Shown: positions 6,129 through 62,108 of the stretch, one piece after another | Layout of the letters: each line of letters begins with the position of its first letter | Numbering within the stretch: the stretch's first letter is position 1 | From: Alphaproteobacteria bacterium | GTDB lineage: Bacteria; Pseudomonadota; Alphaproteobacteria; JAPOUT01; G958296285 | Assembly (NCBI GenBank): GCA_965212075.1 | Contig: OZ243043.1 | Location: forward strand, 582,763 to 646,762 | Direction: 5' to 3' | DNA: 64,000 nt | Made by a program: the position numbers and the translations under genes | Notes under the pieces: model-generated | The model's input: the letters and a program-made list of their open reading frames with translations, nothing else | Told to the model about the DNA's origin: nothing | Database searches by the model: none

Positions 6129-6397
6129 AGTTTAAGCTCTTACTGCACCAGTGATAGAGAAAAGAGGCAGAAAACTGGCTGTATTTTGCTGAATCCAAGT
6201 CATTGATTTTTTCAATTTTTTTTAAAAATGGCCTTGACTCCTTTTACATCACCTATCAAACTACCCCCTATCGCTAAATGTATGGATAACCCTTGTTGGG
6301 TTTCCTACTAAATATAATACCCGGCACAGATCGGGTTTCCCCGTTTTTTCGGGGAATAGGTGGGGCATGATTTTTCCATGCGTTTAGCGATAAAACC

Positions 6398-6422
6398 CGG
6401 CACCTTCGGGTGCCGTTTTTTT
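6398..6422 (+). terminator. Intrinsic-terminator-like hairpin (CGGCACC-TTCG-GGTGCCG followed by T7) inside the leader of the downstream gene
   Basis: A perfect 7-bp GC-rich stem with a TTCG tetraloop is immediately followed by TTTTTTT. It lies 270 bp downstream of the clpA stop and about 20 bp upstream of the probable ATG at 6444. A second hairpin, CCCCG-T6-CGGGG, sits at 6339-6354. Confidence 0.55.
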
Positions 6423-6443
6423 AACGCAAATATGCAGGGGGGA

Positions 6444-7301
6444 ATGATGATGGGTATTCAGAAAACTTTTTTTAACAAGACCTTAGCTGGGTTTCTGGCT
6501 TTAAGTGTGGCACTGGGCACATTTCCGATAGAGGCTTTAGCTGAACACACGGAAACGAGATCTTGCCCAGCGACTATTGCTAGTTTTGGGAGTGGATTTG
6601 ATACTTCCCTAAGCGGCTCCACTCTGACTGCATCGGCGGTGGAGGGTGAAAATAATTGCATTTACGACCGAACTGGTGGCAATTCATTTGCATTGCGTAC
6701 CACCGGCGATACTTATTTAGCGGTTATCAATGGTGGTGTGCATCAAAATGATGACGGGAGTGAGACAACCTTCACGGCTAATTCAGTTGGTGTTGTAACT
6801 GCGCAATCCACTCCGAGAAGTAGTAGCAGTAGTAGCGGCAGCAGCAGCAGTTCCGGTGCCGTTGTCGGCGGGATCGTTGGTGGACTCGCCGGATTAGGGC
6901 TTTTGATTTGGTGGTGGGCAGCTTCCGGCGATGATGAAGACTCACAACTCATCCAATTCCATGACTTAGGGGCAAATTCTTATTTGCCCGCAAGGTCCTG
7001 GTTGGGCGTAGAACATGCCATCACAGACAATGCCAAATTTGCTCTCGGCACTTTCTGGCTGTCGGATGGCTCGGTCAATACGATTATTCCGTCCGTGGAT
7101 AATTCGGGTGTGGATGTTCGCTTGTCTTTGGCGACACGCATCGGCGAGGTTTCCTTCAGTGGGGCTGCTTATAATCATGGCGGGGCCTCACTAGATTATA
7201 ACAATAGCAGCATTGAAAACATCTTTGCTAATACGCTTGAATCCAGCGCTAACTCTGAAGTTGGCTATGCGGTCGGTTTGAACTGGCGCATGTCGTTTTA
7301 A
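6444..7301 (+). CDS. Hypothetical secreted/membrane protein with Ser-rich linker
   Basis: ATG at 6444 is preceded by GGGGGGAATG. It has a signal peptide (MMMGIQKTFFNKTLAGFLALSVALGTFPIEALA), a two-Cys N-domain, an SSSSSSGSSSSSG linker, a hydrophobic Gly-rich segment (GAVVGGIVGGLAGLGLLIWWW), and a C-terminal region ending ...GYAVGLNWRMSF with a terminal Phe. GC looks lower than in flanking genes. The ORF-track start at 6360 would place the terminator hairpin inside the CDS. Confidence 0.55.
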   Translation: MMMGIQKTFFNKTLAGFLALSVALGTFPIEALAEHTETRSCPATIASFGSGFDTSLSGSTLTASAVEGENNCIYDRTGGNSFALRTTGDTYLAVINGGVHQNDDGSETTFTANSVGVVTAQSTPRSSSSSSGSSSSSGAVVGGIVGGLAGLGLLIWWWAASGDDEDSQLIQFHDLGANSYLPARSWLGVEHAITDNAKFALGTFWLSDGSVNTIIPSVDNSGVDVRLSLATRIGEVSFSGAAYNHGGASLDYNNSSIENIFANTLESSANSEVGYAVGLNWRMSF

Positions 7302-7318: not shown

Positions 7319-8533
7319 TTAAATCGGATGAACCGCATGATCTCCCTTGATGTTGCCCAGCTTGCGGCGCGGTGAGGGCGGCGCTTGGCTCTCGGCATAG
7401 CCCATGCGGAACGCAAATGTTGGCTGCATCCGATTTTTCACGAGCTTCCTTAATTGGCGATCCATGCGCGCGGGCTTGTTGAGCATGCGCTCGCGATCAA
7501 CAATTTCTACGGTCTGGTTGATCGGGTGCATCGCGATGCCGCGCTCAGTCGCCATCAGATGAAGCCTTTGCCATAATTGTCCGGCGGCGAGCGAGTTCTT
7601 GACCGTCCAGCGTGTGCGCACCGCAATAATGCCGGCCAGCGGCGCTGTCGCAAGATGAACATTGCGCGTTGCATCAGCCCAAGCTTGATGGCTGTCTTCA
7701 GACGACAAAGCAGGCAGCATTTTTGCCGCCATCAAAATCATCGGCGAAAGTCCGGCGGTGTCCAGCGTGACGCCATCGCGATGGCGTTCAATTTCTTCCG
7801 GCGAGCCGCGAAACCAATGATGGCTCGCGGCCACCATATCTTCATCGTGGATAATTGTTTCTGTCGCCTGATTGGTCAATTTGTCAAAAAGCTCGCGTGA
7901 GCGGCCTTCATCAAAAAAAGATAAAGAGATACTCACAGCGCGCGCAGCGGTTTGAAACAAATTAACGATATCGCCAGGGATCGGCCTGTCGCGCAGATAG
8001 GCACCGCGATTTGTGTGGCGCTGTCCGATGGCCTGATAGAGCGCGCTGCGTGTCGGCTGTGCGCGCGTGAGCGTCAATGTCGCGATGAGCTTTTGTTCGG
8101 GGTTTTGAGGAATCGCGTTCAATCTGCCGCCCGTCAGATTGACCTCAGCCCTCCAGCCATGAGCAGGCGCGGCAAGCAGCATATTCTCAATCGCGCAGCC
8201 CAGCCCGATATGCATTTCGCGCAAATAGGGGTCAAACGCGCCGAGATTGCGGCGCTGGTCGGCATAAAGGCGGATGATTTTCTGCTCCGCGCTTTCATCC
8301 ACTTCAAAAACCCAAGGCTGCGTGTTATGAGGATTGGCCGCGAGCATGCCGGCGATCGCAATGGCTGTCGGCGTCCCCTGATATTGCGGATCGTCCCAAA
8401 GCGTCCATAATTTCCACGGATCGCCCTGCGCGACCGAAAAGGCATCGCGGCGCACACCGTGCCAGACGAACCCGCCAAGCGCGACGAACAAAGTTCCGCC
8501 GCCATATTTCAGCAGATCGCGCCGCGAGATCAT
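7319..8533 (-). CDS. Tat-signal (twin-arginine) exported protein, putatively nitroreductase-like
   Basis: The N-terminus MISRRDLLKYGGGTLFVALGGFVW is a classic RRxLLK Tat motif followed by an h-region. The body has nitroreductase-like segments (IGQRHTNRGAY; C-terminal ...GQLWQRLHLMATERGIAMHPI). The family assignment is weak. Confidence 0.55.
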   Translation of the reverse strand: MISRRDLLKYGGGTLFVALGGFVWHGVRRDAFSVAQGDPWKLWTLWDDPQYQGTPTAIAIAGMLAANPHNTQPWVFEVDESAEQKIIRLYADQRRNLGAFDPYLREMHIGLGCAIENMLLAAPAHGWRAEVNLTGGRLNAIPQNPEQKLIATLTLTRAQPTRSALYQAIGQRHTNRGAYLRDRPIPGDIVNLFQTAARAVSISLSFFDEGRSRELFDKLTNQATETIIHDEDMVAASHHWFRGSPEEIERHRDGVTLDTAGLSPMILMAAKMLPALSSEDSHQAWADATRNVHLATAPLAGIIAVRTRWTVKNSLAAGQLWQRLHLMATERGIAMHPINQTVEIVDRERMLNKPARMDRQLRKLVKNRMQPTFAFRMGYAESQAPPSPRRKLGNIKGDHAVHPI

Positions 8534-10176
8534 TTGGGGGGAATCTTCCAGATATTGGCGAATTCATCGGAGGAGAAATAGATCGCGCCGTCTTTGCCGA
8601 CGGCAAGCCCTGTCGGCAGCACAGTCGGGATGGGGCCGTCGGGCAGGCCGTTGATCGGCAGATTGTCGGCGATGACCTCGCGCTCGCCATTTTTGTCAAC
8701 GGCGATGATCCGTCTGAGTTTCGTTTCAGCGATGATGAATCGTCCATCCTTAAGCCGTGCTAGACCTTCGGCACCCTGCAGTCCCTGCGCGATAATTTTT
8801 TTGGCGCGTGTTTTAAGATTAAAGCTGATTAATCGGCCAGCGATATTTTCAATCAAAAACAAAGTTTGCTGGTCTTGGCTCAGCAGCAGAGTCGCCGGTC
8901 CGGCAAAACCGGTGGCGATTTTTTTCTTCTTTTCCCATTTTTTACCGCTCAATTTCAGCAGCGCGCCTTTGGCAAATTCGGCGATGAGCAGCTCGCCATT
9001 ATCCAAAATGACGGCATCATGCGGCGTCGTAAAACCATGGAGCAGAGCAAGTGATTTTTTTGTTTTGCGATCGAGCACTTGCACCGATCCCGCCGACCAG
9101 CCGGTCAGCGCGATATACTTGTCATTGACGGCGATATGCATCGGATAGTCAATTTCGCTGCCGAAGACGCGGCCAATATCGGTGACCTCGCCGCTCGTGG
9201 GATTCACCATGCGCGTGGCGAACACATCGGCGACATAAAGCACCTCTTTGCCGTTTTCGTGCCAGATCGCGACATCGCCTGCCGCAGCCAGCGCGCCGGA
9301 AATGATGGTAGTCGCTTTGCCGGTTTTTTTGTCAATTTCAATGATCGCATTGTCAGCCATATTGGAAATGAACAGCCGCCCGTCAGGATGAAAGGCGAGG
9401 TTGTCAATAGAGGGTTTGACTCTTGCGACGATGGTTTTCTTGCCGGACTTGCGATCAACGCGCACGACATGGCCGAGCGCGGTGTCCACCGCAAACAGAT
9501 CGCCGCTTTGCGGATCAATGTTGACCGCCGCCGGAACCTTGAATCCTCTGGCGATCGTTTTGATTTTAGCCTTTTCAAGATCCACTTGGACAATCTCGCC
9601 TTTGAACCAGAGCGGGCCGTAGAGCTTGCCGTCTTTGTCAATTTCAAAGCCATTCAAGCCGCCCATTTTTTCCATGATCTTGCGCGGTTTCTTTTTGCCG
9701 GAGACGTCAATTTCATAAAGCGCGTCACCGAGAAAGACTTGCGTGGCATAGAGCCGTCCGTCGGGGGCGAAGTCAAGCGAATTGAGGCCGGGCAGACCTT
9801 CGGCGACCGCGCGGATCGTGCCGCCCGTCTGTTCGCCATTTTTGATGCGCACGGGGTCTTTGACGTAGATTTTTCCTTCCAAGAACGCCGTCCAAGCAAT
9901 CATGCCGTCTTCGGCAAAAGCGATATCATCAGCTTGGCCGCGGGTCGGCGGAATGAAGGTTTTGCTTGTGCCGCTTCTGATGTCAATCTCGTAGGTCTGC
10001 GACCCCAAAACCGATCCGGCGAGCAAGCGGCCTTGATTATCAAAGCCCAGCCCGTGAATGCCGTGAAAGGGCGATTTCGGAGTCACTTCCTCAGGGCTGC
10101 CGCAGGCGGCTAGAGAGCCGAAAGCGGCTAAGACGCAGCAGATCATCAGCGCAAAATGTTTTCTATCTCTTTTCAT
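8530..10176 (-). CDS. Beta-propeller (NHL/SMP-30-like repeat) lipoprotein
   Basis: Lipoprotein signal with lipobox (MKRDRKHFALMICCVLAAFGSLAACGS). Repeated ~40-aa blades with DG(R/K)LY, LYVAD and DGAIYFS motifs. The start ATGA overlaps the HIT stop and the stop overlaps the downstream Tat-protein start, giving a coupled operon. Confidence 0.6.
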   Translation of the reverse strand: MKRDRKHFALMICCVLAAFGSLAACGSPEEVTPKSPFHGIHGLGFDNQGRLLAGSVLGSQTYEIDIRSGTSKTFIPPTRGQADDIAFAEDGMIAWTAFLEGKIYVKDPVRIKNGEQTGGTIRAVAEGLPGLNSLDFAPDGRLYATQVFLGDALYEIDVSGKKKPRKIMEKMGGLNGFEIDKDGKLYGPLWFKGEIVQVDLEKAKIKTIARGFKVPAAVNIDPQSGDLFAVDTALGHVVRVDRKSGKKTIVARVKPSIDNLAFHPDGRLFISNMADNAIIEIDKKTGKATTIISGALAAAGDVAIWHENGKEVLYVADVFATRMVNPTSGEVTDIGRVFGSEIDYPMHIAVNDKYIALTGWSAGSVQVLDRKTKKSLALLHGFTTPHDAVILDNGELLIAEFAKGALLKLSGKKWEKKKKIATGFAGPATLLLSQDQQTLFLIENIAGRLISFNLKTRAKKIIAQGLQGAEGLARLKDGRFIIAETKLRRIIAVDKNGEREVIADNLPINGLPDGPIPTVLPTGLAVGKDGAIYFSSDEFANIWKIPPK

Positions 10177-12265: not shown

Positions 12266-12395
12266 CTTTTTATGCTCCTGTTGGTTTATTATACGCCTGT
12301 TGACTCGGGGCAGATTCTACGAAAATATAGAGGCTGCGTATAGATCGGCAGGAGGCGCGGTCATAAAGACCATTAGGCATTTGGAGACCATCAGG

Positions 12396-12932
12396 ATGGC
12401 CAAAAAGAAAAAGACAGTTAGGAAAAAGGCGGCTAAAAAAAAGGCGGTTAAGAGAAAAACAATAAAGAAAAAGACGATAAAGAGAAAGACAGTAAAGAGA
12501 AAAGCTGCAAAAAAGAAAACTGTAAAAAAGACCGCAAAACGTCAAAAATCGGCGAAGACACAAGACGCCCAATCTTCCGATGACGCAGCATCTTTGGCGG
12601 GTCGCCGCCGTGCCTTAAGAAGAAGACGGCGGACTTTGCGCATGAAAAAAGCCGGCACGTCAATCACTGATGTGGGCATGGTTGCAGGCACGGCGAGCCG
12701 TTCAACATTGTTGACGCGCACGCGGATCATTCGCAAGCGCGAGGATATCGGCATTTTGCCGATTGACAAAAATGTGATGATTAAGGAGCTGATTCAAGCT
12801 GGTAGCATTACTAAGCTAGCGACGCGTTTTGGCGTCACAAAGCAGGCGATTGGCTCATGGTTTGGGCGGCGTGGATTGCAGGCAGTTGATGTCGCTGGTG
12901 AACATGCGACGCATAAAAAAGAAATAATGTAG
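12396..12932 (+). CDS. Lysine-rich histone H1-like DNA-binding protein with C-terminal HTH-like region
   Basis: ATG at 12396 is preceded by AGGA. The N-terminus MAKKKKTVRKKAAKKKAVKRKTIKKKTIKRKTVKRKAAKKKTVKKTAKRQ has degenerate (K)KKT[VI]KRK repeats, and the C-terminus has an HTH-like segment ITKLATRFGVTKQAIGSWF. The long ORF-track start at 12300 has no SD. Confidence 0.6.
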   Translation: MAKKKKTVRKKAAKKKAVKRKTIKKKTIKRKTVKRKAAKKKTVKKTAKRQKSAKTQDAQSSDDAASLAGRRRALRRRRRTLRMKKAGTSITDVGMVAGTASRSTLLTRTRIIRKREDIGILPIDKNVMIKELIQAGSITKLATRFGVTKQAIGSWFGRRGLQAVDVAGEHATHKKEIM

Positions 12933-18054: not shown

Positions 18055-20826
18055 GTGGCGCGTAAGAATGGGATAATTGAAGATATGCCCTCTTCAGAAA
18101 GCGGCATCACGCCGGTTTTCATTGAAGAGGAGATGAAGCGCTCTTACCTTGACTATGCGATGAGCGTGATTGTGTCGCGTGCTTTGCCGGATGTCCGTGA
18201 TGGGCTGAAGCCGGTGCAGCGCCGAATTCTCTATGCGATGTTGGAGAGCGGTTATTTATGGAATCGCCCGCATCGCAAATCGGCGCGTGTTGTCGGCGAT
18301 GTGATGGGTAAATATCATCCGCACGGTGATCAATCTATCTATGACGCGCTGGCGCGCATGGCGCAGGATTTTTCGCTGCGCCTTATGCTGCTTGACGGAC
18401 ACGGCAATTTTGGATCGCTGGACGGCGATCTGCCCGCAGCGATGCGCTATACTGAAGTGCGGCTGGCGGCGATCGCACAATATCTTCTGAACGACATTGA
18501 TAAAAACACGGTCAACTTCCGCGCCAATTATGATGAAAGCGAGCGCGAGCCGGAAGTGCTGCCTGCTTTGCTGCCAAATTTGCTGATTAACGGCGCGGGT
18601 GGAATCGCTGTCGGCATGGCGACCAACATTCCGCCGCATAATCCCGCTGAAATCATTGACGCCGCACTGGCGATGATTGACAAGCCCGATATCACCGACG
18701 CGCCGCTTGCCAAAATCGTCAAAGGGCCGGATTTTCCAACCGGCGGAATCATTCTCGGCCAGATCGGAATCAAATCAGCCTATAAAACAGGCCGCGGATC
18801 CATCGCTTTGCGCGCAAAGGTTGAAATTGAAAAAATGACCCGCGATCGCGAAGCGATCATCGTCACGGAAACTCCCTATCAGGTCAATAAATCCACGATG
18901 ATTCAAAAAATCGCCGACCTCGTGCGCACAAATAAAATAGAAGGCATATCCAATCTGCGCGACGAATCTGACCGCCAAGGTGTGCGCGTCGTCATTGAAA
19001 TTCGCCGCGATAGTCAAGCTGATATTGTCCTCAACCAGCTTTGGCGCAATACGCCTTTGCAGGTGAGCTTCGGCGTCAACATGCTGGCGCTGGTGGGCGG
19101 CCAGCCTATGATGTTGACGCTCAAAAGTTATATCGCCGAATTTCTCAGATTCCGCGAAGAGGTCATTTCACGCCGCACACGCTTTGAATTGGCAAAGGCG
19201 CGTGATCGCGCGCATATTTTGGCCGGCCTGTCCATTGCGGTCGCTAATATAGATAAAATCATTGAGCTTATCCGCAAAGCGCGCGACGCTCATGCCGCGC
19301 GTGAACAATTGATGAAGCGCAAATGGCCCGCCAAAAATGTGCGCGATATTTTGAAAATCATCAACGATATGCGCTACCAGATCAGCAAAGACGGCATGTA
19401 TAAATTATCTGAAATCCAAGCGCGCGCGATTTTGGATTTGCGCCTGAACCGCTTGACCGCGCTCGGACGCGAGGAAATCGCCGCCGAAATGGCAGAGCTG
19501 CAAAAGAAAATCACCGAATATCTTGGCATTCTCGGCGATCGCAAAAAGCTTTACGCGATCCTGCGCGCCGAGCTGGCCGCGCTGCGCAGCAAGGTCAACG
19601 CGCCGCGCCGCACAAAGATTGAGCAGGAAGAAGCAGGCTCCATTGAGGAGGATGATCTCGTGCAAAGTGAGGAGGCGGTGGTGACGGTCAGCCATAGGGG
19701 CTATATCAAGCGCGCGCCGCTTGCGTCATGGCGCGCGCAGCAGCATGGCGGCAAGGGGCGCGCCGGCATGCTGGTCAAGGATGCCGATTTTGCCGCGCGC
19801 ATTTTTTTGACCAATACGCGCGACCGGATTTTGTTCTTTTCATCTTTGGGCAAAGTCTACCAGATGAAGGCGTGGCGCTTGCCGCAAGGTCTGCCGCGCA
19901 CGCGCGGCAAAGCGATGGTCAACCTTCTGCCGCTGGGCAAGACCGAGCAAATCACGACGGTGATGCCGATATCTGCGCACAAGACGCCCAGCGAGGAGCG
20001 CTTCGTGATCTTTGCGACGCGCAACGGCTATGTGCGCCGCAACCGGCTTGATGATTTCGTCAACATCAACCGCGCTGGAAAAATTGCGATGAAGCTTGAA
20101 CGCGGCGATCGGATCGTTTCTGTGGGCATCTGCCATGCGGGCGATGATGTTTTGCTGACAACGCGCGAAGGCATGTGTGTGCGTTTTCCGATTGATGAGG
20201 TGCGGGTTTTTACGAGTCGGCTGTCATCGGGTGTGCGCGGCATGAGCTTGGGCGCGGGCGATGAAGTGATTTCCATGAGTTTGATGGCGCATGTGGAAGC
20301 TTCGCCCGATGAGCGCACGGCCTATCTGCGCCGCGCCGCCGCCGAGCGCCGCGGCGATGGCGATGGCGAAGAGGGCGATCAAGAAGACGAAGAAAAAACG
20401 ATTGCGCTGAGTGATAAGCGCTATCAAAAGATGAAGAAAGAAGAGGAATTTGTGTTGACGATCGCGGCGGGCGGCTATGGCAAGCGCTCATCGTCTTACA
20501 GCTATCGCACGACGAAGCGCGGCGGCAAGGGTTTGGTGGCGATGAAAATCGGCACTCGTAACGGAGATTTGATCGCGTCGTTTCCTGTCAAAAACGAGGA
20601 TCAAATCATGCTGATCACTGAAGAGGGGCAGGCGATCCGCTGCCCTGTCAATAGAGTGCGGGTCGCAGGCCGGACAACGCAGGGGGTGAAAATTTTTGAT
20701 ACAAAGGATAAAGTTGTTTCAGCGGCGCGCATTGAAGAGGCCAGTGAAACGGTGATTGGCAATGGGGCAGGCGATGAGATAGGCAATGAGACAGAAAATG
20801 AGACAGGCAATGGAGCAGCGACATGA
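18055..20826 (+). CDS. gyrA: DNA gyrase subunit A
   Basis: [34 protein letters not shown], the QRDR region [17 protein letters not shown], and 923 aa. A GTG start follows AAGGAG. An acidic insertion and a Gly/Asn/Glu-rich C-terminal tail are present. Confidence 0.95.
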
Positions 20827-21308
20827 AGCGAATTGGCTTATATACCGGCAGCTTTGATCCCATGACGGTGGGGCATATGGATATTATGTCGCGCGCGCTC
20901 CGGCTGGTGGATGAGCTGATTGTCGGCGTCGGGCGCAACTCAACCAAAGCCACGATGATGGCTCCTGATGTTCGCCGCAATCTGATTGAACGGGTCGCTG
21001 CACAAGAATTGAAGACGAATAAAATTAAAGCAGCTTTGTTTAACGGTCTCACGGTGGATTTTGCCAAAAAGCACGGGGTCAGTGTAATCATCAGGGGTTT
21101 GCGCAACAGTTCGGATATGGATTTTGAAGCCGGCATGGCCGGAATGAATCACATGATGAATGGCGATATTGAAACGATGTTTTTGCTGGCACGGCCTGAA
21201 TATTCAGCGATTTCGGCGACATTGGTGCGACAAGTCCATCAGATGGGCGGAGATATATCGCAATTTGTGCCAAAGTCTATTTTTGAATCGATGAAGAGTA
21301 GCCATTAA
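20823..21308 (+). CDS. coaD: Phosphopantetheine adenylyltransferase
   Basis: [25 protein letters not shown] has the T/HxGH nucleotidyltransferase motif. The ATGA start overlaps the gyrA stop. Confidence 0.93.
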   Translation: MKRIGLYTGSFDPMTVGHMDIMSRALRLVDELIVGVGRNSTKATMMAPDVRRNLIERVAAQELKTNKIKAALFNGLTVDFAKKHGVSVIIRGLRNSSDMDFEAGMAGMNHMMNGDIETMFLLARPEYSAISATLVRQVHQMGGDISQFVPKSIFESMKSSH

Positions 21309-21322
21309 GAGGAGTCATTAAA

Positions 21323-21982
21323 ATGGATATAGGCAAGATATTTTTTTCACTTCTGCTATGCGCGGGGCTTCTAGCCTGCTCCCAAGAGGAAAGTGCGCAG
21401 CTAAAAGAATTACGTCAGCTCGCTGGTGAAAGCGATAAGATGGCGCAGTTTGGCTTGGCGACTTTATATTATGAAGGCAAGGAAATTGCGCGTAATTATG
21501 AGGAAGCCGCGCGCTGGTATCGTTTGGCCGCCGGACAGGGTCTGCCTGATGCGCAATTTCACTTAGGCCAGCTTTATGATGAAGGGCGAGGTGTCGTGCA
21601 AAATCCCAAACAGGCGCATGATTGGTATTTGAAAGCCGCGCAGCAAAATTATCACGATGCGCAATATAGGCTGGCTCTGCTTTATGAGCAGGGCAGAGGC
21701 ATTACCAAAGATTATGCTCAAGCTGAGGCTTGGTATCGGCAGGCGGCGGCTTTAGGTCATGTCCGCGCGCTGAACAATTTGGGCGTGATGTATGTTGAGG
21801 GCAGAGGAGTTCCGCAGAATAAAATTTTTGCCTATATTTGGTTTGATTTGGCGTCAAAGTTTGGCCATAAGCAGGCGACAAAACGCCGTGATGACATCGC
21901 CGCGCAAATGACCGTCAACGAGCTTGAAAATGCTGAAAAACAAGCGCAGCGTTTATTAACAGAAATTAAAGCCAGAAGGTAA
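21323..21982 (+). CDS. Sel1-like repeat (SLR) lipoprotein
   Basis: Lipoprotein signal MDIGKIFFSLLLCAGLLACSQ followed by about five SLR units (A..WYRLAAGQGLPDAQF.LG.LY.EGRGV..N..QA..WY.KAA). Confidence 0.8.
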   Translation: MDIGKIFFSLLLCAGLLACSQEESAQLKELRQLAGESDKMAQFGLATLYYEGKEIARNYEEAARWYRLAAGQGLPDAQFHLGQLYDEGRGVVQNPKQAHDWYLKAAQQNYHDAQYRLALLYEQGRGITKDYAQAEAWYRQAAALGHVRALNNLGVMYVEGRGVPQNKIFAYIWFDLASKFGHKQATKRRDDIAAQMTVNELENAEKQAQRLLTEIKARR

Positions 21983-22003
21983 TATAAAGACGATAATATA
22001 AAT

Positions 22004-22567
22004 ATGAGGGCAATGATGTATTCTTCTTTTGTTCGGCGCGCCCTGATGCCGCGTATCTTATCGGCGCTCATTTTAAGCGCCCTATTCATTTCACAGACCA
22101 CGCAGGCTAAGGAGAGCAATATGCTTCATTTGGATTTAAAAACAGGCCGTGTGGTCATTGAGCTTCTGCCCGAATTGGCGCCAAAACATGTTGAACGCGT
22201 CAAGCAGCTCACGCGCGAGGGCTTTTATGATGGCGTGGTTTTTCATCGGGTGATTGAGGGCTTTATGGCGCAGACAGGAGATCCCACCGGCACGGGCACG
22301 GGCGGCTCGTCTTATGGTCATTTGCCTGCTGAATTTACGTGGGATGCGACTTTTGGGCGTGGCACTGTCGGCGCTGCGCGCGCGCAAGACCCTGACAGCG
22401 CTGATAGCCAGTTTTTCATCTGTTTTGCTGATGCAAGCTTTCTTGACGGCCAGTATACGATCTGGGGGCGTGTGGTCAGCGGCATGGAGCATGTCGACAA
22501 AATCGTCCGCGGCGAGCCGCCAGCAAATCCGGATAAAATCATCAAAATGTCCTTAGCCAGAGATTAA
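22004..22567 (+). CDS. ppiB: Peptidyl-prolyl cis-trans isomerase, cyclophilin type (periplasmic)
   Basis: Signal peptide (ILSALILSALFISQTTQA) and cyclophilin core FHRVIEGFMAQTGDPTGTGTGGS...QFFICF. Confidence 0.9.
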   Translation: MRAMMYSSFVRRALMPRILSALILSALFISQTTQAKESNMLHLDLKTGRVVIELLPELAPKHVERVKQLTREGFYDGVVFHRVIEGFMAQTGDPTGTGTGGSSYGHLPAEFTWDATFGRGTVGAARAQDPDSADSQFFICFADASFLDGQYTIWGRVVSGMEHVDKIVRGEPPANPDKIIKMSLARD

Positions 22568-22589
22568 CGTCCTCTAAATAGGTAAGACG

Positions 22590-23855
22590 ATGCCACGCAC
22601 AAACATAAATCCCTCAGAAAATCTTCAGGGAAATTCTCAGGGAAATTCTCAAGAAAATTTTCAAGACGCCGAGCAGCTTTTTGACAAGGGATGGATCGCC
22701 GATCAAAAGGGCCGCTATGATGAAGCTGTAAATTGCTTTCTTCAAGCAGCGAGGCTCGGTTATGCGCCTGCTCAATTTATTATGGGCGTGATAAAGCAAG
22801 AAGGCCATGTTGCTAATCAGAATTATGTTCGGGCCAAGAAATGGTATCAAAGAGCCAAAGTCCAGAATCACGCTGGCGCAGCTAACAATTTAGCTTTGCT
22901 TTTTGAAGAAGGGCGCGGTGTTCCCGAGAAGGATATTCTGCGTGCTATAAAGCTGTTTAACTTCGCCGCCAATGGAGGCAGCGTTGATGCACTCGTCAAT
23001 CTTGCGCGCGTCTATGAGAATGGGGTTGGCGTTTTGCCCGATCAAAACCGCGCGGCGCGTCTATATCGGCAGGCAGCGATGCAGGGGCATGCTGTCGCGC
23101 AATTTTGCCTCGGTGTGATGTATGAGGAAGGGCGCGGCAGCAAGCGTGATCATTGGAAAGCCGTGCGCTGGTATCGCAAAGCCGCCGCCCAGAATGACGC
23201 ATGGGCGCAATATTATTTAGGTCTGATCTATGCAAGCGGCAGCAGCAAAAAGCATGCGCGCCGCGCCTTTCACTGGTTCAGCGAGGCTGCCGCGCAGGGT
23301 TTGCCCGGTGCCCAGCATAGTCTGGGGCTCTTGTTTGAGCAGGGTCGTGGCGTTGCTGAAGATTTTGATGAGGCGATGCTCTGGTTTCGCAAAGCGGCAG
23401 AAGGGGGGGGTAGTGACGCGCAGAATCATTTGGGCTTGATTTTTGCTGAGGGCAAGAATGTTGAGCAAGATTTTCAGCAGGCTGAGCTTTGGTGGCAGCA
23501 GGCGGCAGAGCAGGGGCATGTGCGTGCGCAGTTCAATCTGGGCATGCTTTTTTATCAGGGGCAGGCTCGGATTGAGCGTGATGATGATGCGGCTTTGCAT
23601 TGGTTTCGTGAGGCTGCTTATGGCGGACATGCACAAGCGCAGTTTTATTTGGGCTTGATGTATAAGGATGGCCGCGCCGCGGAGCAGGATGATGTGATGG
23701 CATATAAGTGGTTTGATATTGCGATGCAGTTTGGTGCAGCCGAAGCGCGGGAGCTTCGGCAGGATATTGCGCGCCAAATGCCGTCCGCGCAGCTTGCTGA
23801 GGCCAAGACAGAAGCCGAAGATTGGATCAAAAATTTTAAAAGTCTCCAAAAATGA
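22590..23855 (+). CDS. Sel1-like repeat protein, 421 aa, no evident signal peptide
   Basis: About ten consecutive SLR units with the (A..W(Y/F)R(K/Q)AAEQG...AQ..LG.(M/L)Y..G.GV..D...A..W) pattern. The N-terminus is hydrophilic. Confidence 0.8.
   Translation: MPRTNINPSENLQGNSQGNSQENFQDAEQLFDKGWIADQKGRYDEAVNCFLQAARLGYAPAQFIMGVIKQEGHVANQNYVRAKKWYQRAKVQNHAGAANNLALLFEEGRGVPEKDILRAIKLFNFAANGGSVDALVNLARVYENGVGVLPDQNRAARLYRQAAMQGHAVAQFCLGVMYEEGRGSKRDHWKAVRWYRKAAAQNDAWAQYYLGLIYASGSSKKHARRAFHWFSEAAAQGLPGAQHSLGLLFEQGRGVAEDFDEAMLWFRKAAEGGGSDAQNHLGLIFAEGKNVEQDFQQAELWWQQAAEQGHVRAQFNLGMLFYQGQARIERDDDAALHWFREAAYGGHAQAQFYLGLMYKDGRAAEQDDVMAYKWFDIAMQFGAAEARELRQDIARQMPSAQLAEAKTEAEDWIKNFKSLQK
22627..22662 (+). 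repeat. 12-bp tandem repeat, two perfect copies of cagggaaattct plus a third diverged copy, encoding QGNS-QGNS-QENF at the N-terminus of the 421-aa Sel1 protein
   Basis: The sequence reads cagggaaattct cagggaaattct caagaaaatttt. Confidence 0.5.
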
Positions 23856-24619
23856 ACGCACGTAAAATGAACGCATGTAATGTGATTTTGGCGTTTGGAT
23901 TGTTATTTTTAACGGCTTGCTCCGAACCGGATGCAGGCTTTAAGAAGGGGCTTGAGGCTTACCAGAAAAAAAATTATCCGCAAGCTTTGGAATGGTTTAG
24001 CCGTCATGCAGATTTGGGGCGTGCAGCGGCGCAATTTTATTTGGGATTGATGTATGAGCGTGGCGAGGGAACCGCGCGTAATGCGCGGCGTGCGGCATCT
24101 CTTTATCATAAGGCTGCCAAACAAGGCCATGCGCGTGCGCAGTTTCACTTGGGGCTTTTATATGAAGACGGGCGCGGTGTTGCGCAGGATTATCGCCAAG
24201 CGGCGCATTTTTATCGCAAGGCGGCAGAGCAGAACATTACCGAAGCGCAATTCAATTTGGGCGTGATGTATGATTATGGCCGTGGTGTTGAGAGAAATCG
24301 GCGCCAAGCGCTCAATTGGTATCGCCTATCGGCGGAAAAGGGTCATGTGCGCGCGCAGTTCAATTTGGGCGTGATCTATGCCGAAGGCCGCGATGTGCCG
24401 CGCAGCATCGTTTTGGGACATCAGTGGATGAACATTGCCTTTGCGCTGGGTCATGCGCCGGCAAAAAAAATGCGTGATGATTATGCGCTTCGCATGACGC
24501 CGGATCAATTATTGACAGCACAAAAAAGCGCGACCGACTGGCTTAAAAAATTTGAAGCGCGTGCCCCCAAGCTTTCGGAATGGAATCGAATTCGCCAGAG
24601 CAAAGGCAAGAAAAGGTAA
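23852..24619 (+). CDS. Sel1-like repeat lipoprotein
   Basis: Lipobox LFLTACSEPD followed by about six SLR units. The ATGA start overlaps the previous Sel1 gene stop. Confidence 0.8.
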   Translation: MNARKMNACNVILAFGLLFLTACSEPDAGFKKGLEAYQKKNYPQALEWFSRHADLGRAAAQFYLGLMYERGEGTARNARRAASLYHKAAKQGHARAQFHLGLLYEDGRGVAQDYRQAAHFYRKAAEQNITEAQFNLGVMYDYGRGVERNRRQALNWYRLSAEKGHVRAQFNLGVIYAEGRDVPRSIVLGHQWMNIAFALGHAPAKKMRDDYALRMTPDQLLTAQKSATDWLKKFEARAPKLSEWNRIRQSKGKKR

Positions 24620-24631
24620 GCGCCTTTTCAC

Positions 24632-25651
24632 ATGAAGACTGATCTTTTTGACTATTCCTTGCCGCGCGAGCGCATTGCGCTGCGTCCGGCCTCTCCGCGC
24701 GATCATGCGTGTTTGCTTGTGATTGCGCAGGATCATCTGAGCGATGCGCGCGTCAAAGATTTGCCGGATCTTCTGCGCGCGGGCGATTTACTCGTCATCA
24801 ATGACAGCCCGACCATGCCCGCGCGGCTTTATGGCCAAATTGATGGCAATAAAACCGAGATCGTGCTTTGCGCGCCGCAGGATGATCTTTGGCGGGTGAT
24901 CGCGCGTCCGGTAAAAAATTTATGCCGCGGCAAAAAAATTTTTTTCACGCAAAATATCAGCGCAGATATTGTTGCCTCTGATTTGCTGCGGTTTCACTTA
25001 TCTGAGGAAGATTGGCATGATTTTCTTACTCAAGAAGGTGAGATGCCGCTGCCGCCTTATATTATCAAGCAGCGCGCTGCCGACGATCAAGACCGGCGGG
25101 ATTATCGAACGATCTACCAGACACAAACGCATGGCTGGGGTTCAATCGCCGCGCCGACGGCGGGGCTGCATTTTACGTCGGCTTTGCTGGCGCGCTTAGC
25201 GGCATGCGATATCAACATATTGCGCTTGACACTTCATGTCGGGGAGGGAACTTTTCGTCCGGTGCGTGTTCAAGATGTCGCAGATCACCGGATGCTCTCC
25301 GAGCGCGGCGTTTTGAGCGCGGCGAATGCCGAGCGGATCAATGCGGTCAAAGCGGCGGGAGGACGGATCATCGCTGTCGGCACGACGAGCTTGCGGCTTT
25401 TGGAAGCGGCTAGCGATCGGCATGGCCGTGTTTCTGCTTTTGATGGCAAGACGGATCTGTTCATTGTGCCCGGCTATCAATTTTTGACGGCGGATGCGAT
25501 CATGACGAATTTTCACCTGCCGCGCTCAACGCCGTTAATGCTGGCGGCGGCGCTGGCGGGGCTGGACAATCTCAAGCGCGCTTATGCACATGCGCTCGCG
25601 CGCGATTATCGCTTTTTTTCCTACGGGGATGCCTGCTTGATTTGGCGATGA
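24632..25651 (+). CDS. queA: S-adenosylmethionine:tRNA ribosyltransferase-isomerase
   Basis: MKTDLFDYSLPRERIALRPASPRD...LLVINDSPTMPARLYG...AAPTAGLHFT matches QueA over its full length. Confidence 0.93.
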   Translation: MKTDLFDYSLPRERIALRPASPRDHACLLVIAQDHLSDARVKDLPDLLRAGDLLVINDSPTMPARLYGQIDGNKTEIVLCAPQDDLWRVIARPVKNLCRGKKIFFTQNISADIVASDLLRFHLSEEDWHDFLTQEGEMPLPPYIIKQRAADDQDRRDYRTIYQTQTHGWGSIAAPTAGLHFTSALLARLAACDINILRLTLHVGEGTFRPVRVQDVADHRMLSERGVLSAANAERINAVKAAGGRIIAVGTTSLRLLEAASDRHGRVSAFDGKTDLFIVPGYQFLTADAIMTNFHLPRSTPLMLAAALAGLDNLKRAYAHALARDYRFFSYGDACLIWR

Positions 25652-25671: not shown

Positions 25672-26937
25672 ATGTCTTTATCTGAACGTTTGCGCCCGCG
25701 CTGCCTAGCGGAGGTTTTGGGGCAGGATCATTTGCTGGGCGAAGGTGCGCCGGTGCGTTTGATGTGCGCGCAGGACAAGTTATCGTCAATGATTTTCTGG
25801 GGGCCGCCCGGCAGCGGCAAGACGACGATCGCGCGCCTGCTCGGCGAGATTCCGGGCTATTTATTTCGGCCTGCGGCGGCGACATCAAGCGGTCTGAGCG
25901 TATTCCGCAAAATTTTTGACGAGGCCAAGACCGCGTCGGGGAAAATTTTGCTGTTCATTGATGAAATTCACCGCCTGACGCGCACACAGCAAGATTGTTT
26001 TTTGCCGGTGATGGAGGCCGGTGAGATCGTGCTGGTCGGTGCGACGACGGAGAATCCGTCTTTTGCGCTGAGTGCAGCGCTTTTATCGCGGGCGCGGGTT
26101 TTTGTGCTGAATCGGCTTGAACCTTCTGTGCTGCAGCAATTGATGAAGCGCGCCGAACAGGAGATGGGGCGGCCTCTGCCACTTGACGAAGACGCGCGTG
26201 CGCTTTTGCCGACTTTGGCCGATGGCGATGGCCGTTTTTTATTGGGGCTGGTGGAGGCAATTTTTGATCATGTAAAAGAGGGCGCACAGGAGGGGCATTT
26301 ATCTTCCGAACAGCTGATGAAATTAGTGCAAAAGCGCGCGCCGATTTACGATCAGGGGCGCGAGGCGCACTATAATCTGATTAGCGCCCTGCATAAATCC
26401 ATTCGCGGCAGCGATGTGGATGCTGCGCTTTATTGGCTGGCGCGCATGCTTGCGGGCGGCGAGGATCCTTTTTACATTTTGCGTCGCATGGCGCGCGCAG
26501 CGAGTGAAGATGTCGGCATGGCTGATCCGCAGGCTTTGGTTCAAGTGCTGGCGGCGAAGGATGCCTATGCGTTTTTGGGCTCGCCTGAAGGCGAATTGGC
26601 GGTTGCACAGGCGGTGATTTATTTGGCATCGGCGCCGAAATCCAATGCGAGCTATCGCGCTTTTGCCGAAGCGCGCGCTATGGCATCAGCGACCGGCTCG
26701 CTGACGCCGCCAAAAAACATTCTCAACGCGCCGACGCGCTTGATGAAGACTTTGGGCTATGGCGAAGGCTATATCTATGAGCACCAGCAAGCGGCGCGTT
26801 TTTCGGGGCAGAATTTTTTTCCGGACTCGATAAAGCGGCGGGTTTTTTATCAGCCTGCCAGCACTGGATTTGAAAAAGAAATTACACGCCGCCTGGCTTG
26901 GTGGGAAAGCTTGCGCAAAAAATCTCAAGAAAGATAA
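25672..26937 (+). CDS. rarA: Replication-associated recombination protein A (AAA ATPase RarA/MgsA)
   Basis: MSLSERLRPRCLAEVLGQDHLLGEG...MIFWGPPGSGKTTIARLL and a C-terminal MgsA domain. Confidence 0.93.
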   Translation: MSLSERLRPRCLAEVLGQDHLLGEGAPVRLMCAQDKLSSMIFWGPPGSGKTTIARLLGEIPGYLFRPAAATSSGLSVFRKIFDEAKTASGKILLFIDEIHRLTRTQQDCFLPVMEAGEIVLVGATTENPSFALSAALLSRARVFVLNRLEPSVLQQLMKRAEQEMGRPLPLDEDARALLPTLADGDGRFLLGLVEAIFDHVKEGAQEGHLSSEQLMKLVQKRAPIYDQGREAHYNLISALHKSIRGSDVDAALYWLARMLAGGEDPFYILRRMARAASEDVGMADPQALVQVLAAKDAYAFLGSPEGELAVAQAVIYLASAPKSNASYRAFAEARAMASATGSLTPPKNILNAPTRLMKTLGYGEGYIYEHQQAARFSGQNFFPDSIKRRVFYQPASTGFEKEITRRLAWWESLRKKSQER

Positions 26938-60515: not shown

Positions 60516-62108
60516 TTAATCCTTCTTATATCTGGGAAAAAGCGGTGCCGGTGCAGGCAGTTTCTTTCCGGGTTTTAATATATCAAGCAGTGAAGCAAAA
60601 TCTCGTTTATCCTCATCAACAGCCAGATAATCCAGTAATTTTTTCATATCATTGGGCATAAAGGGCTGCAATAAAATAGCGGCTTGGCGCAAAACATCAA
60701 TGACTATGTAAAGCACATCGCCTTGAGTCTTGCGGTCAGTTTTCGCGAGTTTCCAAGGCTCGTTTTCAGTAAAATAGAGATTAGCTTTACTAATAAAACC
60801 AAAAACAATTTCAAGGGCTATATCTGGGTGGTCAAACTCCATTGAATCACGCACTCTAGATAATAAATCTAAAACGCCGAAAGTTACTGTCGATCCTGCA
60901 GAGGTCTGTGGAAGAAACTTCGTGATGTAATTTCCTTCAGGTAATCTGAACGTCAATGGTGAGACACGGCTTATAGAAGGAATTCTGCCATCCCAGTCTT
61001 TCTGGAGCATCGTCAGTGAGCGCTGAGCGAGATTGCCAAGATTATTGGCGAGATCAGCATTGAGACGGTGAATGATCTGTTGGTCGCCGCATATTCCATC
61101 AGCGCCGAAAACGACTTCACGTAATAGAAAAAAACGGAATGGATCAACGCCATAGGTTTCAGCCAGTTCAAACGGATCAAGCACATTGCCGAGTGATTTT
61201 GACATTTTTTTGCCCTCCCCAGTCAAGATCATGCCGTGAGCAAAAATAGATTTGGGGAGAGGCAGGCCCGCCGACATCAAAAAGGCCGGCCAATAGACTG
61301 TATGGAATCTTAAAATATCTTTGCCGATAATATGAAGGTCGGCAGGCCAAAAACCTCCTTTATTTTCATCAGGGTATCCGATAGCCGTTAAGTAATTTGT
61401 CAAAGCATCCAGCCAGACATAGACGATATGTTGATCATCTTCTGGCACTTTCACGCCCCAATCAAAACTGGAGCGCGAAATGGATAAATCTTTCAACCCG
61501 CCTTTGACGAAAGAAATGACCTCATTGCGTCGCGTTTCGGGCTGGATAAAATCAGGATGTTTCTTATAATAATCCAGCAGTCTATCTTGATATTCTGACA
61601 ATTTAAAAAAATAGCTCTCCTCTTCAACCCATTCCACTGGCGCGCCGGAAGGCGTCGCCCAGTCGCCCTGTTCGTCTTTGACAAGCTCGCTTTCGGTATA
61701 AAACTCTTCCTCACGCGGCGCATACCATCCGGCATAAACACCTTTATAAATATCTCCCTTTTTTTCTATTTCGTTCCAAATATGCTGCACCGCGCGATGA
61801 TGTTCTTTCTGCGATGTCTGGATAAAATAATCATAAGAAATGGAAAAATGATCGCACATCGCCTTGAAAAGCTGGCTGAGCTGCCCGGTCAGCTCCTGCG
61901 GCGATTTGTTCTGCGCGCGCGCCTCGCGGTAGATTTTTTGCCCATGCTCATCGGTGCCGGTGACGAAATAGACCTCATAGCCGTCAAGCCGCTTGAAGCG
62001 CGCAAAGGCGTCAGCCGCGATCGCCTCATAGGCATGGCCGATATGCGGCGGCCCGTTCGGATAGGAAATCGCCGTCGTGATATAAAACTTTTTCTTTGAT
62101 GCACTCAT
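60516..62108 (-). CDS. metG: Methionine--tRNA ligase
   Basis: HIGH motif (YPNGPPHIGHAYEAI) and KMSKS motif (GKKMSKSLGNV); 530 aa. Confidence 0.95.
   Translation of the reverse strand: MSASKKKFYITTAISYPNGPPHIGHAYEAIAADAFARFKRLDGYEVYFVTGTDEHGQKIYREARAQNKSPQELTGQLSQLFKAMCDHFSISYDYFIQTSQKEHHRAVQHIWNEIEKKGDIYKGVYAGWYAPREEEFYTESELVKDEQGDWATPSGAPVEWVEEESYFFKLSEYQDRLLDYYKKHPDFIQPETRRNEVISFVKGGLKDLSISRSSFDWGVKVPEDDQHIVYVWLDALTNYLTAIGYPDENKGGFWPADLHIIGKDILRFHTVYWPAFLMSAGLPLPKSIFAHGMILTGEGKKMSKSLGNVLDPFELAETYGVDPFRFFLLREVVFGADGICGDQQIIHRLNADLANNLGNLAQRSLTMLQKDWDGRIPSISRVSPLTFRLPEGNYITKFLPQTSAGSTVTFGVLDLLSRVRDSMEFDHPDIALEIVFGFISKANLYFTENEPWKLAKTDRKTQGDVLYIVIDVLRQAAILLQPFMPNDMKKLLDYLAVDEDKRDFASLLDILKPGKKLPAPAPLFPRYKKD

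Follow-up and report, generated by a model that had tools for sequence, protein, structure and literature searches.

Do Sel1-like repeat (SLR) genes that lie within a row of housekeeping genes encode proteins directed at a host, or parts of the cell's own machinery? The question is raised by a locus of an alphaproteobacterial genome (NCBI GenBank assembly GCA_965212075.1, contig OZ243043.1), which we analysed in a stretch of 64,000 nucleotides (positions 582,763 to 646,762 of the forward strand; hereafter, the window). Between coaD and queA, three SLR genes encoding proteins of 219, 421 and 255 amino acids (aa), designated S1, S2 and S3, surround a gene for a cyclophilin. An earlier annotation made from the letters only (the sequence-only reading) had described this arrangement, with a periplasmic cyclophilin, and the open reading frame (ORF) map and Pfam searches agreed with it. 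That reading had gone on to present S2, which has no signal peptide, next to its secreted paralogs as an effector candidate, a proposal that our results do not favour. We favour instead the reading that the SLR genes encode lineage-specific but fixed adaptor scaffolds associated with the cell envelope, together with one cytoplasmic paralog (S2), and we put its probability at roughly 0.55.

Conservation of the SLR genes in an isolated lineage

In database searches, queA had an identical entry, found on a contig of 1.61 Mb; five relatives followed at 74-76% identity, and the matches after these were at most 54% identical. Because identities fall from 76% to 54% and the lower matches are scattered over many alphaproteobacterial orders, the window comes from an isolated, uncultured alphaproteobacterial lineage. 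The loci of four relatives (L050-L053; European Nucleotide Archive assemblies ERZ25070185 and ERZ25069326) were read, giving five genomes with the window. All four relatives had the row proS-lolCE-lolD-ssb-gyrA-coaD-S1-cyclophilin-S2-S3-queA-rarA-rluC-pccB-pccA in the same order as the window. Orthologues were identical to the window proteins at 63-65% (S1), 60-63% (S2) and about 70% (S3) of positions; the values for the cyclophilin, queA and gyrA were 77-80%, 74-76% and 83-84%. The overlap of the S2 stop and the S3 start by 4 nt (ATGA), noticed in the sequence-only reading, is real and was kept in all five genomes, and the relatives also overlap S1 with the cyclophilin gene and coaD with S1. 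Export signals were the same throughout (5/5): lipoprotein-type in S1 and S3, Sec-type in the cyclophilin, and none in S2. It had been reasoned that SLR orthologues at identical positions in free-living relatives would speak for an ordinary conserved scaffold; they do stand at the same position in 4/4 relatives, a result that concerns position and not the free-living status of those organisms.

Two outgroups, L054 (GCA_964654995.1; queA 54% identical) and L084, had the row ssb-gyrA-coaD-cyclophilin(-cyclophilin)-queA-tgt without SLR genes, in line with the earlier remark that other Alphaproteobacteria carry a cyclophilin gene between coaD and queA without such neighbours. In three other outgroup loci queA stood in a different context (fur-queA-tgt in L011, from a scan whose queA matches were at most 48% identical). 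In L054 and L084, the signal-bearing cyclophilin of this position shared 56-62% identity with the window cyclophilin. Since the outgroups share the row without SLR genes and their cyclophilin is conserved to this degree, sequence comparison identifies the cyclophilin gene as the ancestral resident between coaD and queA and the SLR genes as insertions around it, made in the stem of the clade and kept since.

Outside the clade, neither three large protein searches nor a metagenome scan turned up an SLR orthologue of more than 50% identity; the one match above that level was the L050 orthologue of S3, and the SLR homology searches were dominated by long repeat proteins. The scan of metagenome contigs, performed with an alignment of the S3 orthologues, yielded no further clade members, only generic SLR genes of at most 50% identity.

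Three further observations were made on these loci. Between coaD and queA, L084 (4913-5942) carries a signal-bearing cyclophilin of 181 aa and a second, signal-less cyclophilin of 155 aa; the clade retains the signal-bearing cyclophilin only, and S2 and S3 stand where L084 has the second, cytoplasmic one. rarA (mgsA) follows queA in the window and in L050-L053, and tgt directly follows queA in all five outgroups (L011, L054, L082-L084); judged by gene order, the queA-tgt pair is broken in this lineage. L051, L052 and L053, all from ERZ25069326, are three distinct genomes (87-98% protein identity at the locus; 4-6x coverage by contig name), and their coexistence in one metagenome points to microdiversity of the clade at the strain or species level.

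Selection on the SLR genes and their origin

The ratio of nonsynonymous to synonymous substitution rates (dN/dS) was estimated gene-wide by the Nei-Gojobori method on the five sequences. It was 0.05-0.19 for S1, 0.13-0.33 for S2 and 0.06-0.18 for S3; gyrA, coaD, queA and rarA gave 0.05-0.30. S2 was the least constrained SLR gene by this measure. Thus, the SLR genes are under purifying selection about as gyrA, queA and coaD are.

The sequence-only reading had suggested a local expansion of paralogs. The addition of SLR genes is indeed specific to the lineage, whereas a recent tandem duplication of one SLR gene that gave rise to S1, S2 and S3 is very improbable. The three family members are adjacent and have one orientation, S2 overlaps S3 and has in common with it a tetratricopeptide repeat (TPR)-like N-terminal cap and a C-terminal capping helix, and S2 and S3 were sisters in a neighbour-joining tree (100 bootstraps), at 38% support. 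In the same tree, however, the three genes formed a group in 11% of bootstraps only, and each orthologue group was recovered at 100%. Every relative has a separate orthologue of each paralog (4/4); therefore, any duplication must be older than the clade. The paralogs were 40-47% identical over their C-terminal four-repeat modules, and S2 and S3 were 40% identical over S2 31-187 and S3 30-185, where the N-cap is shared, and 41% identical over the C-terminal modules. These values are at the background level, no higher than the similarity to unrelated SLR proteins of other bacteria; the best outside matches of S3 (171-184 bits) exceeded its match to S1 (155 bits), and unrelated SLR proteins also outscored S2 as matches of S3. 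The cyclophilin gene, moreover, separates S1 from S2. On these sequence comparisons a recent local expansion is excluded, and an ancient S2/S3 duplication and separate acquisitions both remain as candidate origins.

A tentative alternative for the origin, which fits either functional reading, is that the stem lineage acquired the SLR genes horizontally, once or several times, next to the cyclophilin gene, and that they were then domesticated and fixed. The interval is without SLR genes in the outgroups, the searches described above found no orthologue of more than 50% identity outside the clade, and the paralogs could not be shown to be most closely related to one another. The G+C content at third codon positions (GC3) of the SLR genes was the lowest of the region (0.47-0.51 vs a mean of 0.59; z -1.4 to -2.2), which hints mildly at a foreign origin or at low expression. 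This deviation is small, however, and is seen in some clearly native genes too, e.g. lexA and metG; no mobile-element remnants, tRNA or repeats were seen flanking the SLR genes. The drop in queA identity from 76% to 54% without intermediates also leaves a vertical origin with loss elsewhere possible.

Predicted location and architecture of the encoded proteins

The cyclophilin has a cleavable-type N-terminal Sec signal (...TTQA-KE), with a hydrophobic N-terminus in 5/5 orthologues, and is therefore predicted to be periplasmic. Lipoprotein signals had been attributed to two of the SLR proteins, and lipoboxes were found at Cys19 of S1 and Cys23 of S3 (criterion: a signal peptide ending in [LVI][ASTVI][GAS]C). 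S1 consists of the lipoprotein signal, four Sel1 repeats of 36 aa and a C-terminal capping helix; its lipobox, GLLAC-S with Ser at +2, is canonical (LLAC-S) in all five orthologues. In S3 the lipoprotein signal (FLTAC-S) leads into a TPR-like N-cap, after which come four Sel1 repeats, a C-cap and a tail rich in Lys/Arg. The Cys-Ser pair of S3 is invariant in the five orthologues, and the lipobox is canonical in two of them, as LTAC-S in the window and LGSC-S in L052. Both proteins are thus predicted to be lipidated. Mature S3 is strongly basic in every genome (pI 9.7-10.0; 5/5), S1 is close to neutral and S2 slightly acidic, a conserved difference in charge that may reflect different partners. 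A duplication at the S3 start, seen in the window genome only, gives a second in-frame ATG at 23867.

In S2 a disordered N-terminus (residues 1-19) and a TPR-like N-cap precede nine Sel1 repeats and a capping helix at the C-terminus. That S2 is without a signal peptide, as the sequence-only reading had held, was borne out in 5/5 orthologues: its N-terminus has no hydrophobic segment (maximum KD12 0.88), and the ORF cannot be extended upstream past a stop codon at 22575-22577. The N-terminal QGNS tandem repeat reported earlier was also recovered, as about four copies of a 12-nt unit; it was not present in the four S2 orthologues and is specific to the window genome.

An AlphaFold2 model of S2, built on an alignment of database homologues, was an all-alpha solenoid of 22 helices with a predicted local distance difference test score (pLDDT) of 94.2. 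Its top Foldseek matches were the Oxalobacter SLR protein (6ok3), EsiB (4bwr), LceB (8sxq) and LpnE (6deh), with TM-scores of up to 0.70 (normalised to query length) and 0.80 (to target length); further structure matches were SEL1L, HcpC and AlgK. Overall, identities stood at 21-36%, a level set by the repeat consensus. S2 is thus modelled as an SLR-type fold, a right-handed superhelix of antiparallel helix pairs with a C-cap.

Among known proteins, the best matches were the SLR proteins of Oxalobacter formigenes (6OK3, 6ONW, 6ORK, 6UR7) and EsiB/c5321 of Escherichia coli (4BWR), with sequence E values of 1e-97 to 1e-36 and Foldseek E values of 1e-21 to 1e-11. Like the SLR proteins of the window, they have a repeat of 36 aa, a right-handed alpha/alpha superhelix and a capping helix at the C-terminus, but identity is 29-36%, and they are secreted or periplasmic products of single genes. 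To our knowledge, no protein of this type comes from a conserved three-gene set around a cyclophilin. LpnE (6DEH) and LceB (8SXQ) of Legionella pneumophila also have the C-cap helix, with 8 repeats as compared to 9 in S2; they differ from S2 in their Sec signals, and S2 sits in a housekeeping row.

Probable envelope scaffolds and the possible link to peptidoglycan

In the reading that we favour, three genes for alpha/alpha-solenoid SLR proteins would have been inserted around the cyclophilin of an ancestral gyrA-coaD-ppi-queA row, in a small, deep-branching clade of uncultured Alphaproteobacteria, and would share transcripts with the housekeeping genes next to them. S1 and S3 would be lipidated and, given their Ser at +2, placed on the periplasmic face of the outer membrane if the E. 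coli Lol rule applies. Their target would most plausibly be peptidoglycan-associated machinery, and the strongly basic S3 perhaps binds an acidic envelope component. S2 would most likely be a soluble scaffold that stays in the cytoplasm. The fixation, synteny and purifying selection of the SLR genes are a better fit to core adaptor proteins than to effectors. A functional tie of the SLR proteins to the cyclophilin is possible.

A target in the peptidoglycan machinery is perhaps the case, and we hold this part with much lower confidence than the general reading. It is suggested because a PG_binding_1 domain occurs in several proteins among the closest outside homologues of S1 and S3 (Sel1 + PG_binding_1 fusions), and because characterised periplasmic SLR/TPR proteins, namely RgsF and ExoR of Sinorhizobium meliloti, EnhC and E. 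coli LpoA/CpoB/NlpI, act at peptidoglycan machinery. EnhC of Legionella works in the periplasm on a peptidoglycan enzyme. RgsF (SMc03995) is an essential periplasmic protein with TPR and six SLR elements that is located at cell-wall growth zones (PMC7327166); by analogy, it would be a precedent for SLR proteins as housekeeping envelope factors. RgsF and ExoR, which show that essential or regulatory periplasmic SLR proteins exist in Alphaproteobacteria, combine a TPR-like element with Sel1 repeats, as S2 and S3 combine the TPR-like N-cap with Sel1 (for RgsF, the comparison is one of architecture only). They have ordinary signal peptides and are not lipoproteins, and S2 is predicted not to be exported.

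None of the curated equivalog families built from Sel1 repeats was reached. The ExoR equivalog model failed (36-63 bits, best 63.5, vs a cutoff of 450), and MerG (84-159 bits, best 159.4, vs 350), AlgK (55-96 bits, best 95.6, vs 700) and MotX (29-80 bits, best 79.5, vs 330) were also below the NCBIfam cutoffs. AlgK, MotX and MerG were the best partial matches in NCBIfam, and AlgK structures appeared in the fold search as well. Together with E. coli LpoA, NlpI and BamD, AlgK, Vibrio MotX and MerG are lipoprotein or periplasmic alpha-solenoid adaptors, a type to which S1 and S3 would belong. No alginate, flagellar or mer genes were found near the SLR genes.

Several points weigh against envelope scaffolds. 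The SLR orthologues (60-70% identity) diverge faster than their neighbours (76-84%), and this and the low GC3 described above are compatible with accessory genes too. In L050, L051 and L053 the S3 lipobox reads LWSC-S, with a Trp at -2 that lies outside the PROSITE pattern. The +2 sorting rule is that of E. coli and may not hold in this organism. The link to peptidoglycan comes from fusions in homologues of 40-50% identity and from analogy, and co-transcription is suggested by gene spacing only. Finally, the whole region packs unrelated housekeeping genes into one compact row, so that adjacency to the cyclophilin may be meaningless.

Effectors and other alternatives

The principal functional alternative is a set for host interaction, in which S2 would be translocated by a system other than Sec (a type IV or type I secretion system or similar) and S1 and S3 would be surface-exposed or released and bind host or prey proteins. 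A role of this kind has been proposed for Legionella LpnE, LceB, EnhC and LidL and the Helicobacter Hcp proteins. We regard this alternative as unlikely; on a window of 64 kb it retains a small probability. S2 is without a signal peptide in 5/5 genomes, whereas the characterised SLR proteins EsiB, EnhC, HcpC and LpnE have one, but an N-terminal hydrophobic segment was likewise missing from roughly 40-70% of the retrieved outside SLR homologues. Because signal-less SLR proteins are this common among homologues, the absence of a signal from S2 is not distinctive. LceB and LpnE are among the closest solved structures; this likeness, however, is generic (30-34% identity, repeat consensus), and the Oxalobacter and E. 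coli SLR proteins score higher. LpnE and LceB themselves carry Sec signals and are virulence-associated or linked to Dot/Icm (PMC10868440).

The S2 N-terminus, disordered and variable with a lineage-specific repeat, and the faster evolution and low GC3 of the SLR genes as compared to their neighbours would suit effectors. An accessory or variable distribution or diversifying selection, as is typical of host-interaction genes, was not found: the SLR genes are fixed and collinear within a housekeeping row in 5/5 genomes, and their gene-wide dN/dS of 0.05-0.33 is no higher than that of coaD or queA. The longest contig with the identical queA, at only 1.61 Mb, hints at a small genome. On the other hand, no secretion-system genes were found in the 64 kb of the window, which was all of the genome that was scanned, and the relatives' assemblies, with contig numbers above 75,000-137,000, suggest complex environmental communities and not host tissue.

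SLR expansion had also been taken as a sign of host association. At E <= 0.001, S1 alone had matches in 225,750 cluster representatives; bacterial SLR proteins are ubiquitous, and the label "eukaryote-like" therefore carries little weight. Many of the SLR homologues retrieved were fused to kinase, caspase, TIR or protease domains. The remainder of the window is ordinary core genome, with comEC, lexA, clpA, trpEGDC, moaC/moeA, ppiD, tpiA, pyrG, kdsA, eno, lipA, ispDF, trkAH, metG, holB and tmk, and includes pathways of tryptophan, molybdenum-cofactor and isoprenoid biosynthesis.

Could the SLR proteins be of the penicillin-binding or beta-lactamase type, as is annotated for Helicobacter HcpA-E and automatically for many SLR proteins? 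HcpC (1ouv) was among both the sequence and the fold matches, but the match is weak, with 21% identity in the fold alignment. The disulfide cysteine pairs that define Hcp proteins are missing; mature S1 and S3 hold the lipobox Cys only, and the two or three cysteines of S2 include none that is invariant across the five orthologues. An Hcp-like function is therefore barely credible.

It is also quite improbable, in our estimate, that the quartet S1-cyclophilin-S2-S3 is a dedicated lineage-specific module, a new kind of SLR-based system instead of three independent scaffolds. As proposed, S3 would be translationally coupled to S2, and S1 would be an outer-membrane lipoprotein. S2 might then be exported non-classically and presented or handed over by the lipoproteins, e.g. 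as a host or prey factor of an alphaproteobacterium with a small genome; alternatively, the set might link cytoplasmic and periplasmic steps of an envelope process.

If the SLR proteins are envelope scaffolds, as we favour, little changes: three uncharacterised members join an enormous family of adaptors. The locus would then also be a clean example of repeat-protein genes that were inserted and fixed in an ancient housekeeping row, and it carries the caution that SLR or "eukaryote-like" repeats, or the absence of a signal peptide, are by themselves no evidence for effectors. It would matter more only if the organism were associated with a host or prey and S2 were shown to leave the cell.

Features of the locus and other observations in the window

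The features of the locus are listed in Table 1. From gyrA to rarA all genes share the + strand and are spaced by -4 to 22 nt, and the gyrA stop is overlapped by coaD by 4 nt. The identities of coaD and queA are backed by NCBIfam equivalog models, and all three SLR proteins score far above the Pfam Sel1 (PF08238) gathering score of 30.7 bits.

Table 1. Genes and short repeats of the gyrA-rarA region (positions in the window)
Feature	Position	Strand	Evidence and remarks
gyrA	18055-20826	+	ORF map
coaD (pantetheine-phosphate adenylyltransferase)	20823-21308	+	TIGR01510 169.7 bits vs cutoff 103.3; upstream anchor of ancestral row
S1, 219-aa SLR lipoprotein (predicted)	21323-21982	+	Pfam Sel1 (PF08238) 125.8 bits, 4 repeats
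Cyclophilin-type peptidyl-prolyl isomerase, 187 aa	22004-22567	+	Pro_isomerase PF00160 142.9 bits
S2, 421-aa SLR protein without export signal	22590-23855	+	Pfam Sel1 221.1 bits, 9 repeats
12-nt tandem repeat, ~4 copies; codes for NLQGNSQGNSQENFQ within the disordered S2 N-terminus	22607-22666	+	TRF and sequence
15-nt tandem duplication over the S3 start codon (MNARK-MNACN)	23849-23880	+	TRF, sequence, orthologue alignment
S3, 255-aa basic SLR lipoprotein (predicted)	23852-24619	+	Pfam Sel1 146.7 bits, 4 repeats
queA, downstream anchor of ancestral row	24632-25651	+	NCBIfam NF001140 395.2 bits vs cutoff 324
rarA	25672-26937	+	ORF map

A purpose-built Sel1 hidden Markov model found no further Sel1-repeat ORFs within the window besides S1, S2 and S3. 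A scan of the locus region gave no credible intergenic promoter or terminator, Rfam gave no RNA families in the window, and PADLOC gave no defence-system match bar one negligible. Nothing relevant was found in the literature on operons of Sel1 and cyclophilin genes. A long antisense ORF within S2 (23217-23876) was taken as a by-product of repeat composition and discarded.

Besides the 12-nt repeat in S2 and the 15-nt unit at the S3 start (x2.1), both of which are not found in the four orthologous loci, a tandem duplication of a 13-nt unit (x2.2) lies at 21294-21321, at the coaD stop and the S1 ribosome-binding site. These three short duplications at SLR gene 5' ends or junctions suggest slippage-prone gene starts in this genome. 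Terminator-like hairpins were in excess between 17000 and 28500 (33 vs 18.0 +/- 3.7 expected from shuffles); because almost all of them are inside coding regions, the excess is probably a compositional effect and not regulation.

Elsewhere in the window, three ORFs had no Pfam match: 6360-7301 (+, 313 aa), 7319-8533 (-, 404 aa) and 12300-12932 (+, 210 aa). The 313-aa ORF has low GC3 (z -2.1) and is near a gene for a 548-aa NHL/SGL beta-propeller protein at 8530-10176. metG, which encodes methionyl-tRNA synthetase (60516-62108, -), had the lowest GC (0.455; z -2.9) and GC3 (0.465; z -2.3) of the 48 window genes, and it may be a horizontally replaced aminoacyl-tRNA synthetase gene.

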